This document shows, piece by piece, positions 15,161 to 48,220 of a stretch of DNA of 64,000 nt; position 1 is the first letter of the stretch; each line of letters opens with the position of its first letter. Below the pieces are notes generated by a model. It saw nothing but the letters and a program-made list of their open reading frames with translations. It had not been told where the DNA came from and did no database searches. This stretch comes from Escherichia phage vB_Eco_F27. The position numbers and the translations under genes were made by a program. The stretch lies in sequence record OP870146.1; one strand, 5' to 3'.

Positions 15161-16197
15161 TTATATTCAGCATGAGTCGCAAATTCATGCCCGTTTATAT
15201 GAAACAACAAAATTTGGATAGTCCATAGATATGCAACGTTCTTTTATAGTGCTAGGATGAAAATTTAGCGCTTTAGCTGCTTCTATATAAGACGTATACT
15301 TAATACCGTCAACAACCACATATTCAGGAACTTTATGAATAGTAGTCTTAATACTCAAAACAAGAGGATGAGTTTCGACTTCACTTTCAGTGCAATTTAA
15401 ATATTCCGCTGCTTTTTTAAAACTTCTAAAAGTTTTATTTTTAAGCTTTATCGATACTTGTTTTTTACTTTTTCGACTATTGATATTATTTTGCACATGT
15501 TCCTTAGATCTTCCGTTTTTAGCATAATATTCAGCTACAGAAGATTTTATATTGTTTTTATGAGATTCGGATAACACTTTACCCTTATGAGCATCTCTTA
15601 ATTTTTGAATATGTTCTTCAGTATCCGGATGCTTATAAAACTTTTTACCGCCTATGGATTTATTTAAACATTTTTTGCTATAAAAATATTTACGTATGAC
15701 CTCTTCTTCATGTTTTAATGCATCTTTATAACTATCAAATGTTTTTAAAATTATCCATTTAGTAGGTGTATCAGTTTTTAAGCGTTCATTTATATACTTA
15801 GATGACGTTGTGTAAGTTTTCCAGTTTGTGGGCTTGTTTTTAATTGTTCTAAATTTTTTATAACCGATATAAATGTCGCCATTAGAAAACTTAACTAAGT
15901 ATGTAAATGCGTCTTTATCTTTTATTTTAGTACAACGTCTTTTATCCATTTCATTGTTTCACCTCGTATTCATAAGATAATCTTATTTATACAAGATGAC
16001 TGCTGCATGTCGCCATGCAGATTAGACTATATCTTCATCTTTCGATGCCGGTCGTTTCGAATAGCATTAGCTTCTATTCTACACCGCTACATTCATCACG
16101 GTTAGTCGTTAGGCATTTAGTTCAAAAGAACATTTAGCACGGGATTGTCTACTAGAGAGGTTCCCCGTTTAGACCGGTTTTACATGAGCCTGAATTA
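15161..16197 (-). mobile_element. group I self-splicing intron in nrdD (boundaries approximate)
   Basis: Exon 1 frame hits a stop at 16195-16197, followed by AAACGGGGAACCTCTCTAGTAGACAATCCCGTGCTAAAT, a sequence I recall from T4 group I introns, then an embedded endonuclease ORF. Confidence 0.8.
15185..15949 (-). CDS. intron-encoded homing endonuclease I-TevII (GIY-YIG type)
   Basis: 254 aa; ...FTYLVKFSNGDIYIGYKKF... and basic C-terminal DNA-binding region; lies inside the nrdD intron as in T4. Confidence 0.85.
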   Translation of the reverse strand: MDKRRCTKIKDKDAFTYLVKFSNGDIYIGYKKFRTIKNKPTNWKTYTTSSKYINERLKTDTPTKWIILKTFDSYKDALKHEEEVIRKYFYSKKCLNKSIGGKKFYKHPDTEEHIQKLRDAHKGKVLSESHKNNIKSSVAEYYAKNGRSKEHVQNNINSRKSKKQVSIKLKNKTFRSFKKAAEYLNCTESEVETHPLVLSIKTTIHKVPEYVVVDGIKYTSYIEAAKALNFHPSTIKERCISMDYPNFVVSYKRA

Positions 16198-32462: not shown

Positions 32463-32861
32463 TTATTTGTAGGTTTTCATCCAATTCTTGAACAAAGCCG
32501 CGACGTCTTTCTCTTTAACGTTCAGTTTAATGTCCAACATTTTACCGCCCGCTGCTCTCGTTTGACGAATCTTAGCAGTACCGGTTTCACCATTCCACTC
32601 AACATAATATTGCCCAGTGTTCATAGCGATACCGTTGCCAAAGTCTTCGTTATTAGAAGTAGTGAATGCCAACTTCATGGTCTTAGAGACACGGGCCGGC
32701 ATGCCTGTCTGAAGGGCATTACGAACGCGAATAACCTGAGGAGTGGCCTGGGTCAGGTTCTCATTCAGTTCTTCGGTGAACTCTTCAGATTCAAACATCG
32801 CCAAAAGTTCTTTAGATGCAGGAATTACATTCTCTGCGATAAATTCTTTATATGTTTTCAT
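32463..32861 (-). CDS. internal protein-like, with capsid targeting sequence
   Basis: 132 aa starting MKTYKEFIAE, the T4 internal-protein capsid targeting sequence; preceded by a GTTTAC...TGGTATAAT promoter. Confidence 0.6.
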   Translation of the reverse strand: MKTYKEFIAENVIPASKELLAMFESEEFTEELNENLTQATPQVIRVRNALQTGMPARVSKTMKLAFTTSNNEDFGNGIAMNTGQYYVEWNGETGTAKIRQTRAAGGKMLDIKLNVKEKDVAALFKNWMKTYK

Positions 32862-32925: not shown

Positions 32926-33186
32926 TTAAGCTTTACCGCCAGAAATAATTCCGAAGTTGTTAAAATCGTATCCAATATCGTCAACATCTACTTTAGGACT
33001 TACTACAACATAAGCAATTTCACTACGTTTTGCATAGGTGTTTATTTCTTTACCATCACCACCTAAGAAAGAATACCCATTACGTTTTAATGAGCCAAAG
33101 TCTTCCGCATCACCAATGAAAGCTTTAACTTTAAATTTAGGACCTTTGGCATCTGCTTCAACGATAAATTCTTGATACATTTTCAT
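32926..33186 (-). CDS. internal protein-like, with capsid targeting sequence
   Basis: 86 aa starting MKMYQEFIVE. Confidence 0.55.
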   Translation of the reverse strand: MKMYQEFIVEADAKGPKFKVKAFIGDAEDFGSLKRNGYSFLGGDGKEINTYAKRSEIAYVVVSPKVDVDDIGYDFNNFGIISGGKA

Positions 33187-33192
33187 TTTTCC

Positions 33193-33306
33193 TTAGTAAA
33201 TTGATTTACCATAGTATTTGTACCAAGTCGGACGTTGAGCAATTTTTTCATCTAAGCGTGCTTGATTTATCGCAATGGACGCTTCGGACGGGTCATAATT
33301 TCCTCC
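33193..33306 (-). pseudogene. denV: denV (endonuclease V) remnant: start codon plus out-of-frame C-terminal fragment
   Basis: Promoter, RBS GGAGGAAA and ATG ACC CGT (MTR) at 33306 are followed by a stop after 9 codons. The adjacent frame encodes ...[31 protein letters not shown], matching the T4 DenV C-terminus as recalled. Confidence 0.65.
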
Positions 33307-33355
33307 AAGTAGTTGATGAATGTATAGTATCAAAACCCTTGGAGGAAGTAAACAA

Positions 33356-33637
33356 CTATTTTTCTGAAGCGCCTGAAATATATTTTTCAAGACGTTGTTT
33401 CATTAAAGAGCCGTTCTTAGCGATTTCTTCCGGTTTATCGCACATACGCAACAAGGCTTCGAGCTTAACGATATCGCTGGTACGTTCAAATTTGCGAGTA
33501 TCTATCTTACTAGCAAGTTCAGAAATACGTGCTAATAGACTTTCGGCTTCAACCAAAGCTGCACCTAGCTTAGTTGCAAATGTGTCAGTAGCTTCGTTAA
33601 GAATAGATTCTGATAAAAATTCACTATATGTTTTCAT
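33356..33637 (-). CDS. internal protein-like, with capsid targeting sequence (ipIII/ipII position)
   Basis: 93 aa from [10 protein letters not shown]; lies directly downstream of e. Confidence 0.6.
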
Positions 33638-40996: not shown

Positions 40997-41302
40997 TTAA
41001 TTTTTCCAACTTAACAACTTGTAGTGTCCTTCATTCATACGTGGTTTATCCCAAGAAATACTAATATATGATTCGCTGTCAATAGAAGTCGCCGGGTTTT
41101 TCTCTACCGTAAGACCTTCACTTTCCAGCCATTCAATAGTATTTGCGCATAAATCAGAAGAACACCTAATCGGAAACCGGCAAGATTTTTCACCTTTAGC
41201 TGCAGTGTTATACATCTTTTCTAAAATACGCTTTTGCACGTTTTTAAAAATAGTTTCAGCAGATTCTTCAGATTTTTTATTCAGTTCAGTGTAAAGACTC
41301 AT
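40997..41302 (-). CDS. hypothetical protein
   Basis: 101 aa ORF. Confidence 0.45.
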   Translation of the reverse strand: MSLYTELNKKSEESAETIFKNVQKRILEKMYNTAAKGEKSCRFPIRCSSDLCANTIEWLESEGLTVEKNPATSIDSESYISISWDKPRMNEGHYKLLSWKN

Positions 41303-41390
41303 AATATTCTCCTCATGTTTTGATAGGTCTATAGTAACACATCTAGGGAAGAAGTAAACAACTTTTTCAGTAAGTTATAAACCCCCTAAT

Positions 41391-41406
41391 GGGGACCGAA
41401 GTCCCC
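41391..41406 (-). terminator. GGGGAC-TTCG-GTCCCC stem-loop downstream of 41412..42038
   Basis: Perfect 6-bp stem with UUCG loop, seen directly. Confidence 0.5.
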
Positions 41407-41411
41407 ATTCT

Positions 41412-42038
41412 TTACTTACGAGTTTTTGCATATTGAGCAGCGTCAGCAGCCAAACGACCTGCCTGACGAAGTTTTTCTTTAATCGCATCGTGAAGTGGTT
41501 GAGTGTACTTCAAACCTTCGATAGTCAAATAAAGACGATAAAGGTCCGGGGTATCAAGGTTGTTGATATGTTGGCCATTACGAAGAATATTGAATTCACG
41601 AACGAGTGAAGATGTATCGGATTCAATATCACGAACAAGCGAAGATAGTTGTTTATATTTTTTTTCCAGACTAGAAGTATCAAACTTAAGAGCAGGAGCT
41701 TTAGGAGTTGCTTTTACTTCAGGCTTAGGCTCAGGTTTTGCTATTGCTTTAGGGGTCGCAGGTTTAGGAATGGAAGGAGTAGGTTTTACTTTAGGCGAAC
41801 CCGATTTAGCAGAAACACCACCACTAACAATATCTTTGAATGCTTTAGAAGCTCTGTAATATTCTTTTTGGCTGGAAGTGTCGATACCGTACATGGCTTG
41901 AACGTTTTTGAAAAACTCTGTACTAGTTTTTGTACCAGAAATAGCATCGTAAGCAGCTTGCCATTTCTCTTTTGTCATACGTACACCGGCTTCGGTGATT
42001 ACTTCCGTTTCGGCTAAAAATTCATTAAAAGTATACAT
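41412..42038 (-). CDS. internal protein-like, capsid targeting sequence variant and Pro/Lys-rich linker
   Basis: 208 aa starting MYTFNEFLAE; TATAAATA late-promoter consensus on the minus strand at 42074-42081. Confidence 0.5.
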   Translation of the reverse strand: MYTFNEFLAETEVITEAGVRMTKEKWQAAYDAISGTKTSTEFFKNVQAMYGIDTSSQKEYYRASKAFKDIVSGGVSAKSGSPKVKPTPSIPKPATPKAIAKPEPKPEVKATPKAPALKFDTSSLEKKYKQLSSLVRDIESDTSSLVREFNILRNGQHINNLDTPDLYRLYLTIEGLKYTQPLHDAIKEKLRQAGRLAADAAQYAKTRK

Positions 42039-42073
42039 CGATGGTCCTTAGAAAGTAGGTTTATTGTTTACTA

Positions 42074-42081
42074 TATTTATA
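42074..42081 (-). promoter_or_regulatory. late promoter consensus TATAAATA
   Basis: Exact match on the minus strand about 36 nt upstream of the ATG at 42038. Confidence 0.5.
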
Positions 42082-42111
42082 CAAAAAAGCCCCAACCTTT
42101 CGGAAGGGGCT
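42082..42111 (-). terminator. intrinsic terminator AGCCCCTTCC-GAAA-GGTTGGGGCT plus U-run
   Basis: Same hairpin sequence as at 26793-26822. Confidence 0.65.
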
Positions 42112-42119
42112 ATATACCT

Positions 42120-42414
42120 TGTCGGGGTTTCCACCTACTAAGGCAAGTGTTTGTACGAAACGCCGGGATTCGAACCCGGTTATTGAGTAGTTGACGCTAC
42201 TCAATATTTTTAAAAGGCCATATCTCGACCATATCCGAACGTTCCGTCAAAAACGCTACTCGGCTTACGGCAAAGATATTTCCTCGAATCGATAATTCGG
42301 TGCGCCGTTTCTGCTGTGATGTAAGGGGATATTAACAAATCGTAAAGATTTATTAAGACCAGTCCTTACTCAGGGAACATCAGTCCGACGACTTACCGGT
42401 AGCGACCCGGCTTC
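42120..42414 (-). ncRNA. candidate structured stable RNA region (tRNA-like T-arm, no full cloverleaf found)
   Basis: No plausible ORF; contains ACCGGGTTCGAATCCCGG (T-arm-like) and a 9-bp hairpin ATTGAGTAG/CTACTCAAT. By position could correspond to T4 stable RNA species. Confidence 0.3.
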
Positions 42415-42759
42415 TTATTTTGGCATATCATCAATTTGCTCTCGACGCCGACGCCATAGATTAATCGCTTCATAAACACATTCTGCGTTTGGTATATGAC
42501 GGCAATAATATAATGATTCGCGTTTCTGGAATCGATGTTGCAATGGGATTTCGTTTAAAAGGTCTTTACGGTCAAAGTATTCAAAACTAGTTAACCCGGA
42601 ACGGTTTTTAATGAACTTCCAATGACCAAATTCATTTTGAACATAGATGTAATCTGCATGTTGGTATAACAAATTAATCAATCGGTCTGAAATAACTGTA
42701 TCATGTTCGTTAAAATAAAACGTTAAATCATGAACTACTAAGTAAACATTACCTTTCAT
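42415..42759 (-). CDS. hypothetical protein inside the tRNA region
   Basis: 114 aa from the ATG at 42759 (MKGNVYLVVHDL...) after GAGGAAAA. Confidence 0.5.
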   Translation of the reverse strand: MKGNVYLVVHDLTFYFNEHDTVISDRLINLLYQHADYIYVQNEFGHWKFIKNRSGLTSFEYFDRKDLLNEIPLQHRFQKRESLYYCRHIPNAECVYEAINLWRRRREQIDDMPK

Positions 42760-42777
42760 ATTTTCCTCACTTAAAAT

Positions 42778-42854
<77 letters not shown>

Positions 42855-42954
42855 ATGATGCGGCTTTGGGTGTTTCAGTGTTACTCGTTTGTAGGTTCTA
42901 CTTTTAACCCTTATTCGAACAACTTACCTACCTAAGAGCGTACTCACCGCGAAT

Positions 42955-43029
42955 TGGTGGCCCTGGCTGGTTTCGATCCAGCTACCTATCAGTTATGAGC
43001 TGACAGCTCTCCCATTGAGCTACAGGGCC
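42955..43029 (-). tRNA. tRNA with CAU anticodon (Ile2-type or Met)
   Basis: Hand-folded: acceptor GGCCCTG/CAGGGCC, D-arm GCTC-AATGGGA-GAGC, anticodon stem GTCAG/CTGAT with loop CTCATAA, T-arm GCTGG-ATCGAAA-CCAGC, encoded CCA. Confidence 0.75.
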
Positions 43030-43125
43030 TAAATAAATTTCTATTATGAAAGGCCCTTGAGGGAGCACCTTTGGTAATAGAGGGTAGATTAATAATAACA
43101 CATAATTCTTAAAGCAAATTACGTT

Positions 43126-43416
43126 TTACCGTACCATATTAATGTAGTTATATTCAATGCAACGTAATTTCAAAGGGTTCTTGAAAATATCATATTCAAG
43201 AGGGCCTTTTTCTGTTTCAATAAAGAAATCAAAGTTAACTGTGTTAAATTTAACGTCTTCACAGAGTAATTTAACTTGTGAAGATGAACGGTCGATATAA
43301 ACCTTTTCAACCTCAAAGATAGTCAGAATACCGTAGTCATTAACCAGTGCTTTAGCTGCACGTTGGTCGCTTTCATATCCGTTCTCAATGGACGATACTT
43401 TAGCATAAAGAATCAT
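43126..43416 (-). CDS. hypothetical protein
   Basis: 96 aa ORF. Confidence 0.45.
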   Translation of the reverse strand: MILYAKVSSIENGYESDQRAAKALVNDYGILTIFEVEKVYIDRSSSQVKLLCEDVKFNTVNFDFFIETEKGPLEYDIFKNPLKLRCIEYNYINMVR

Positions 43417-44031: not shown

Positions 44032-44295
44032 TTATTTCAAATATATTGCGTATTTTTTATAGCCACCAGGCTCGTGTCGAAGACCTTTATCATTCGCAAA
44101 ACGTTGAATGTTATTGAACTGATTTTCATCAAGTTCGGATGTGTCAAATATGAAAAAGTTTCGTTTGTTGCCAAGCGTGATATGCGGAGTTAAGTCAATG
44201 TTATACAAATTAAGAATATCAGCAATAACCTGATTGACCGCTTTGTTAATTTTCACACCAGACGATTCTGAGATGAATTCGTTGAAAGTTTTCAT
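44032..44295 (-). CDS. internal protein-like, with capsid targeting sequence (ipI locus)
   Basis: 87 aa from MKTFNEFISE. Confidence 0.55.
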   Translation of the reverse strand: MKTFNEFISESSGVKINKAVNQVIADILNLYNIDLTPHITLGNKRNFFIFDTSELDENQFNNIQRFANDKGLRHEPGGYKKYAIYLK

Positions 44296-44356: not shown

Positions 44357-44668
44357 TTATTTTATGCCTTTAGAAGAAATGGTGTTTTGGCGTTTGGTCC
44401 CTGTTTGTGAAAAATCGTGGTTATCGATTTGGTCGACTCGCATAACACCAAATGCAGATTTAATTTTAGCCTTTGAACCTTTTTTGATACTAATTATCAT
44501 ATAAGTATCATTTTTCTTATATTCGAAATTTGTTACTTCAACGCCTTGATTAGAAATTGACTTAATAATAGCATTAGCGTATTCATCATCTAACGGACCG
44601 GTGGTGTTAATAATAAAATTTTTATCGGCTTTAGTAGCTTCAGCGATAAACTCTTGATAAGTTTTCAT
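44357..44668 (-). CDS. internal protein-like, with canonical capsid targeting sequence (ipI locus)
   Basis: 103 aa from MKTYQEFIAE, identical to the T4 internal-protein capsid targeting sequence; the rest of the protein does not match T4 IPI as I recall it. Confidence 0.6.
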   Translation of the reverse strand: MKTYQEFIAEATKADKNFIINTTGPLDDEYANAIIKSISNQGVEVTNFEYKKNDTYMIISIKKGSKAKIKSAFGVMRVDQIDNHDFSQTGTKRQNTISSKGIK

Positions 44669-48197: not shown

Positions 48198-48205
48198 TAT
48201 AAATA
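48198..48205 (+). promoter_or_regulatory. late promoter TATAAATA for gene 53
   Basis: Exact consensus about 43 nt upstream of the gene 53 start. Confidence 0.6.
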
Positions 48206-48212
48206 GTATTAT

Positions 48213-48220
48213 TATTTATA
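48213..48220 (-). promoter_or_regulatory. late promoter TATAAATA (minus strand) for gene 4
   Basis: Plus-strand TATTTATA is the reverse complement of the consensus; about 27 nt upstream of the gene 4 ATG. Confidence 0.55.

Follow-up and report, generated by a model that had tools for sequence, protein, structure and literature searches.

Introduction

The closest described counterparts of the gene reported here are the internal proteins of phage T4. IPI, a member of the variable T-even internal-protein set, travels in the head and enters the host along with the DNA, where IPI* counters GmrSD (PMC3012670). In the T4 internal proteins, only lysines touch the DNA phosphates (PMC3012670). T4 needs IPIII for infection of ECOR17, and IPIII works in the cytoplasm in its tag-less form (PMC9391042). 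Head assembly in T4 drops to half the normal rate when IPIII is mutated (PMC9026906). The capsid targeting sequence (CTS) of T4 is MKTYQEFIAE, in which residues 4 and 7 serve targeting and residues 8 and 10 serve processing; the prohead protease gp21 cleaves after L/I-x-E (PMC9026906).

Here we describe a gene for a 208-aa protein in a stretch of 64,000 nucleotides (the window) from Escherichia phage vB_Eco_F27 (sequence record OP870146.1). We estimate a probability of roughly 0.8 that its product is a CTS-targeted packaged head protein. The gene is an unannotated member of the known T-even internal head protein class, not a new kind of system.

Results

The gene and its surroundings

The window comes from a Mosigvirus, an RB69/JS09-like coliphage of the T4 type. 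Over 901 bases around the gene, the best 30 matching records were 97.7–99.3% identical and all were Mosigvirus; vB_EcoM_G2469, FL31, JS09, HX01 and mar005P1 are among them. The coding sequence occupies 41412..42038 on the minus strand, stop included. It starts with ATG, ends with TAA at 41414..41412 and encodes a precursor of 208 aa (23.2 kDa, pI 9.5) that begins MYTFNEFLAETEVITEAGVRMTKEKW. A Shine-Dalgarno sequence, AAGGA at 42045..42049 (minus strand), is seen in the sequence 6 nt 5′ of the ATG.

Read in the direction of the gene, the upstream order is tRNA-Met and tRNA-Arg, an ORF150c-like gene, rnaD, rnaC, a terminator, a late-promoter motif and then the 208-aa gene. The terminator is the intrinsic terminator of the rnaC/rnaD/tRNA unit at 42111..42083 (minus strand), with the stem AGCCCC..GGGGCU and a GAAA loop at 42111..42088 and a U5 run at 42087..42083. 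Its RNA fold has an energy of −16 kcal/mol (z = −3.1), it carries a terminator annotation in phage G2469, and the same hairpin stands 3′ of rnaC in both T4 and RB69. From this arrangement, the terminator would shield the gene from early transcription. On the other side, a 9-bp stem-loop with a UUCG tetraloop lies at 41409..41388 (minus strand), 2 nt past the stop and without a U-run. It was also detected in the hairpin scan, folds at −15.5 kcal/mol (z = −2.5) and is probably a mark of the transcript end or a stabiliser. A T4 early-type promoter for the next gene (GTTTAC, 17 nt, TACTAT) follows 3′ of this hairpin. With a terminator and its own promoter motif 5′, and a hairpin and then the promoter of the next gene 3′, the 208-aa gene appears to be an insulated monocistronic unit.

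In all seven other phages that were fetched, the gene lies directly past the last tRNA gene and ahead of the e.8/e.6 block. T4 has the rnaC terminator but neither the promoter motif nor the 208-aa gene at the site. In RB69, homology stops at 42075, at the junction of terminator and promoter, and returns at 41316; between the points that match these positions RB69 carries a different segment of 1.19 kb.

The region upstream holds several features of its own. An Rfam scan of 41300-43200 matched two tRNAs only. Homologs of T4 rnaD (42415..42299, minus strand, 88% identity) and rnaC (42292..42154, minus strand, 98.6% identity over 139 nt) were present, and no Rfam model matched either of them. The near-identity of rnaC stands out against the overall nucleotide identity of T4 and Mosigvirus, for which a preprint quotes 61%. 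The small ORFs 42061..42204 and 42210..42338, as well as a 42-aa CDS that is annotated in G2469 at the position matching 42210..42338, overlap rnaC/rnaD and are therefore probably not genes. Further upstream, the ORF at 42415-42807 (minus strand) has a TTG start at 42807 and overlaps tRNA-Arg (42778..42854). The true start of the gene in it is probably an ATG, as it is in RB69 ORF150c, which would yield a protein of 114 aa beginning MKGNVYLV....

A conserved late-promoter motif

T4 late promoters consist of an octamer at about −10 and have no −35 element. The initial annotation placed an exact late-promoter consensus upstream of the gene on the minus strand. This was confirmed. The T4-type motif TATAAATA is matched exactly at 42081..42074 (minus strand), begins one base past the U-run of the terminator and is separated from the ATG by 35 nt. 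Transcription is predicted to start near 42068.

The motif occurs 8 times in the window as compared with 8.4 times expected from shuffles, and we rejected its copy number as meaningful in itself. The copy at 42081..42074 is significant because of its position and its conservation. We compared eight phages from eight genera, namely the window phage, JS98, CHI14, EcS1, Kosakonia 305, fHe-Yen9-01, PG7 and Marfa. Half of them (4/8) have the exact motif and the other half (4/8) have the form [G/C]ATAAATA, always 30–50 nt 5′ of the ATG. Besides the window phage, TATAAATA is found in JS98, fHe-Yen9-01 and PG7; CHI14, EcS1 and Kosakonia 305 have GATAAATA and Marfa has CATAAATA, so that each of the four inexact motifs has a single mismatch at the first base. 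The late-promoter motif, the N-terminal tag and the position past the last tRNA gene are all kept in 8/8. Conservation across eight genera supports the reading of the octamer as a putative late promoter.

No TATAAATA was found within 110 nt 5′ of T4 ipI, ipII or ipIII, and a dedicated late promoter is thus not a hallmark of internal-protein genes. Within 120 nt upstream of the other five tag-bearing ORFs of the window (see below) there is likewise no exact copy. Early-type promoters (GTTTAC/ATTTAC ... TAnnAT) are found instead at T4 ipI, ipII and ipIII and at three of those five ORFs.

Elsewhere in the window, two exact copies of TATAAATA stand back to back, 15 nt apart and on both strands, in intergenic DNA at 48198-48220. 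On each side they lie upstream of an ORF whose ribosome-binding site is good. The two copies resemble divergent late promoters, and the flanking genes are probably the homologs of gene 4 and gene 53.

Capsid targeting sequence and predicted processing sites

The reported start of the ORF with MYTFNEFLAE and its length of 208 aa both held. Residues 1–10 (42009..42038, minus strand) form a CTS comparable to MKTYQEFIAE of T4 IPII/IPIII, and all four mapped T4 positions are satisfied by F4 (aromatic), F7, L8 and E10. F7 is invariant in the family. A motif of the protease type, L-A-E10, closes the tag.

The pattern M..[YF].EF[ILVM].E was found 6 times in the six-frame translation of the window, whereas 0.005 matches were expected from residue shuffles. 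All six are ORF starts on the minus strand. The gene had been counted as a fourth CTS locus; this has to be revised to six CTS ORFs in three clusters (44668..44357, 44295..44032, 42038..41412, 33637..33356, 33186..32926 and 32861..32463). The other five encode 86–132 aa, and one of them has the tag MKTYKEFIAE. A remnant of denV (endonuclease V) lies among them at 33196-33355 (minus strand). Its start and first codons (MTR) are fused to the last ~36 codons in a different frame, and these ~36 codons correspond to aa 102–137 of RB69 denV. About 297 bp of RB69 sequence are absent here between the 93-aa and the 86-aa tag-bearing ORFs.

Family alignments point to a second site of the prohead-protease type directly after the CTS. 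It spans aa 11–16, TEVITE (41991..42008, minus strand), with I-T-E16 followed by A. The family form is [ILV]-[ST]-E16 followed by A, and E16 in the context [ILV]-x-E followed by A is invariant in 12/12 family members. In EcS1 and CHI14 the first site is absent and the second alone is kept (MLKFKEFISE followed by A). A gp21-type motif therefore occurs twice at the N-terminus, as L8-A-E10 and as I14-T-E16 followed by A, and cleavage is predicted from these motifs. Based on L8-A-E10, the family-invariant E16–A junction and the likeness of the second site to that of IPI, the mature chain is expected to start with T11 or, with greater likelihood, with A17. The predicted mature chain has ~21 kDa, a pI of 9.8 and 25 Lys. 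One further motif, I-K-E188, is not conserved across the family. The tag, together with protease-site glutamates, is retained in proteins whose identity is down to 32–40%.

Protein architecture

AlphaFold2, run on a 12-sequence alignment, gave a model with a mean pLDDT of 75 and two helical domains joined by a disordered linker. The N-terminal domain comprises aa 17–75 (41814..41990, minus strand), with helices predicted at 23–31, 39–50 and 57–72 (pLDDT 81–89). The linker, aa 76–117 (41688..41813, minus strand), is rich in Pro, Lys and Ala and has a pI of 10.3 (pLDDT 33–49). The C-terminal domain, aa 118–208 (41415..41687, minus strand), has predicted helices at 122–153, 164–177 and 180–206 (pLDDT 90–97).

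Conservation differs between the three parts. Identity to orthologs is 20–83% in the N-domain and only 19–36% in the linker, which also varies in length. The C-domain is 64–77% identical in 5/7 compared phages and holds most of the invariant columns; among the most distant orthologs in which it persists, it is the best conserved part. The linker had been described as a PKPxxPK repeat. We found a low-complexity Pro/Lys/Ala stretch instead (11 P and 9 K in 42 residues), with PKPATPK present once and no tandem repeat detected by TRF in the DNA under the linker. The protein had also been said to be larger than the T4 internal proteins, which is correct only marginally, as T4 IPIII has 193 aa. Compared with the mar005P1 ortholog, dN/dS is 0.19, a sign of purifying selection.

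Family and distribution

The protein matched PHROG 2280 ("unknown function") with E = 1.9e-57. By tblastn, the gene was found in 138 phage records, T4 itself not among them; the genera are Mosigvirus, Dhakavirus, Winklervirus, Kagamiyamavirus, Kanagawavirus, Tegunavirus, Karamvirus and Marfavirus. The annotation was "hypothetical" throughout the listed records and cluster names that were checked. Only 15 proteins, and no annotated relative, came out of an exhaustive profile search across 1.84 billion protein representatives. One of the 15, the repetitive P0030 (479 aa), is probably spurious. Two distant members could be placed in phage records, one from a Serratia phage and one from an Aeromonas phage, both with T4-like genomes. 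As judged from these sequence searches, the PHROG 2280 family is small and confined to T4-like phages.

The distant members show exchanges of whole domains. P0025 and P0027, the latter from Serratia phage 92A1, keep the N-domain and the linker and have other C-domains. P0026, P0029 and P0031, the last from Aeromonas phage avDM4, keep the C-domain and have other N-domains. The replacement domains around the conserved Pro/Lys/Ala linker in these five proteins had no Pfam match.

Pfam, NCBIfam and PADLOC gave no match above threshold for the window protein; SIX1_SD appeared at E = 0.21. TonB was rejected, with 16.9 bits against a cut-off of 315. Its match covered only the Pro-rich aa 80–121 and thus reflects composition, not homology. 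The sequence profile search of the PDB returned Lpp coiled-coil noise alone (E ~0.3). Foldseek found family members alone in BFVD and no match with E < 1 in the PDB. No similarity in sequence or fold to known anti-defence proteins or DNA-binding domains was found. Fold and family searches suggest no biochemical function.

Presence of an ortholog in virions

The initial annotation proposed virion proteomics as a check and named absence from virions as one half of its refuting condition; published data on an ortholog already speak against such an absence. In CsCl-purified particles of vB_Eco_mar005P1, MAR005P1_00015 was one of five proteins detected by mass spectrometry (PMC6563131), and in GenBank it bears the remark 'confirmed structural protein by MS'. 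MAR005P1_00015 is 98% identical to the window protein, with four residue differences. The other four virion proteins are the tail sheath, a prohead core protein, the major capsid protein and the packaged Alt ADP-ribosyltransferase; the authors made no mention of a targeting tag (PMC6563131). In a virion proteome this shallow, detection as one of five proteins speaks for a high copy number. The papers on the Kosakonia, Serratia LC53, GADS24 and AV110 phages contain no virion mass spectrometry or transcript data on the gene.

The reading as a head-packaged protein is supported by the CTS, by the late-promoter motif and by the ortholog in whole virions, from which a location in the head would follow by the tag.

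Comparison with known internal head proteins

The protein has the features of the internal-head-protein class. It is a small, basic and variable protein of a T4-type phage with a CTS and an L/I-x-E motif, and its ortholog is in the virion. A T4-type prohead core is indicated by the 97–99% identity of the window to Mosigvirus and by the prohead core protein in the mar005P1 proteome.

Compared with T4 IPIII (PHROG 5341), the protein shares the 10-residue CTS ending in L/I-x-E and a similarity that extends to about residue 26 and includes K-D/E-x-W. Both proteins are basic, belong to one size class (193 and 208 aa) and occur in virions, and both genes belong to the non-essential stretch that separates gene e from gene 57 in T4-type genomes. 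However, BLASTP similarity is restricted to residues 1–26 and the two proteins belong to different PHROGs. The IPIII gene adjoins gene e, whereas the 208-aa gene lies 3′ of rnaC; the latter has its own exact late-promoter motif, whereas ipIII has none within 110 nt. The window protein is also distinct in its predicted all-helical fold of two domains and a Pro/Lys linker. None of the inspected hits of the exhaustive profile search resembles IPIII. With no homology past residue 26, another PHROG and another locus, we rejected the identification of the gene as an IPIII ortholog. By tblastn against the window, neither T4 IPIII nor T4 IPI gave a match, and the sole match of a T4 internal protein was the 11-residue tag of IPII at 44668.

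The likeness to T4 IPI lies in the CTS-type propeptide, which ends ...STITE followed by A in IPI and EVITE16 followed by A here. IPI* is a compact alpha/beta inhibitor of the type IV restriction enzyme GmrSD with 76 residues, whereas the window protein is 2.5 times larger and predicted to be helical. No similarity of sequence or fold was found between the two.

RB69 has a relative at the corresponding site. At 15429-15991 (minus strand) of NC_004928, ORF149c (146 aa) and the overlapping ORF148c, which holds the C-terminal part, are two frames of what is apparently a single gene broken by a frameshift. This split is either a genuine pseudogene or a sequencing error. ORF149c/ORF148c match PHROG 2280 with E = 6e-37 and the family HMM with E = 3.9e-10 in the N-half. 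ORF149c lies directly past the rnaC terminator and has the CTS MKTYAEFLTE, the motif MY.IDTSS and a linker followed by FDT. However, it is highly diverged, its upstream motif is AATAAATA, and the next gene is e.8, which is absent from the window. With T4 lacking the gene at the site, the RB69 allele divergent and apparently frameshifted, and homology breaking at the promoter, the gene appears to be variable, dispensable and cassette-like.

Like other CTS-type packaged proteins of T4-like phages, Alt enters the head by means of a propeptide, is cut by gp21 and reaches the host along with the DNA. In mar005P1 virions it was detected together with the ortholog. Alt differs as a 70-kDa low-copy enzyme, whereas the window protein has no detectable catalytic domain.

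Discussion

Taken together, we consider it probable that the gene encodes an internal head protein that is made late, targeted by its tag, processed, carried on the DNA and injected. Judged from the motif and its conservation, transcription would occur only late, from the gene's own TATAAATA, with the rnaC terminator blocking early read-through. MYTFNEFLAE would bind the scaffolding core of the assembling prohead, as its match to the mapped T4 determinants suggests. The gp21 homolog would then cut after LAE10, after ITE16 in front of A, or at both sites, and leave a Lys-rich mature chain of ~21 kDa and pI 9.8. This chain would stay in the filled head, consistent with the mass spectrometry of the ortholog. 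By analogy with IPI* and IPIII, it may lie on the DNA through its lysines and the basic Pro/Lys linker, be ejected with the genome into the host and shield the incoming DNA from a first-response defence there. T4 IPIII unites a defence role of this kind with a part in head assembly. That the selected role here is counter-defence, and not purely architectural, we hold at somewhat less than even odds.

A purely architectural protein, an IPIII-like filler that builds the prohead core and neutralises the charge of the DNA with no host target, is the most serious alternative, and we regard it as somewhat unlikely. Its apparently high abundance in virions would suit such a role, as would the Lys-rich composition, the pI of 9.8 and the Pro/Lys/Ala linker that resembles a histone tail. 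The locus is fixed and the folded domains are conserved across eight genera; a fixed position together with a dN/dS of 0.19 suits a housekeeping protein no less than an arms-race effector. The half-rate head assembly of T4 IPIII mutants (PMC9026906) and the generic predicted helical fold, which has no enzyme or inhibitor signature, point the same way. However, T4 has no copy at the site and RB69 appears to have only a divergent, frameshifted one, so that the gene cannot be essential for head building. The domain swapping in the family is more typical of conflict proteins, and host defences are the target of both T4 internal proteins for which a phenotype is known.

Two further alternatives place the protein outside the filled head. 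As an accessory of the tail, neck or baseplate, it would carry its N-terminal tag as a vestige of recombination between the 5′ ends of internal-protein genes. Mass spectrometry places the ortholog in whole CsCl-purified particles only, T-even internal-protein loci swap cassettes at shared 5′ sequences, and the homology to RB69 breaks at the promoter. A vestige would decay, however, whereas the tag and the protease-site glutamates are kept at 32–40% identity and every mapped functional position of the CTS is intact. No similarity to any tail protein family was found, and we consider this explanation very unlikely. Least probable of all, with very slim odds, is a transient component of the scaffold or core that is degraded and expelled during maturation and is neither carried nor injected. 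The CTS does direct proteins to the scaffolding core, where gp22, gp67 and gp68 are cleaved to peptides (PMC9026906), and I-K-E188 adds one more candidate cleavage motif. However, the ortholog is present in mature purified virions, and I-K-E188 is not conserved; only the N-terminal sites are, as in internal proteins.

For the packaged internal head protein that we favour, a more speculative extension concerns the family as a whole. PHROG 2280 could be a modular delivery scaffold, in which the tag, a helical domain and the basic Pro/Lys linker form a generic carrier that rides on the DNA, while the remaining domain serves as an interchangeable effector against first-response defences of the host. 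The exchange of C- or N-domains in distant members and the shared cassette bounds, terminator and promoter, allow this reading, which we nevertheless regard as unlikely. If true, the PHROG 2280 scaffold would be to the phage capsid what polymorphic effector systems are elsewhere.

No phage molecules come into contact with the host cytoplasm earlier than the internal proteins, and IPI and IPIII of T4, the only ones with a known phenotype, set which strains can be infected. Proteins of PHROG 2280 occur in at least eight genera of T4-like phages of the type used in therapy, whose hosts are E. coli, Shigella, Klebsiella, Enterobacter, Serratia, Yersinia and Kosakonia. The second natural targeting tag with its conserved double cleavage site would be a tool for placing cargo in capsids other than that of T4, and the dedicated late-promoter cassette would likewise be usable for loading them. 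Recognition of the protein as a tag-bearing packaged protein would correct the annotation of about 140 genomes and turn a hypothetical gene into a concrete candidate for host range and anti-defence.
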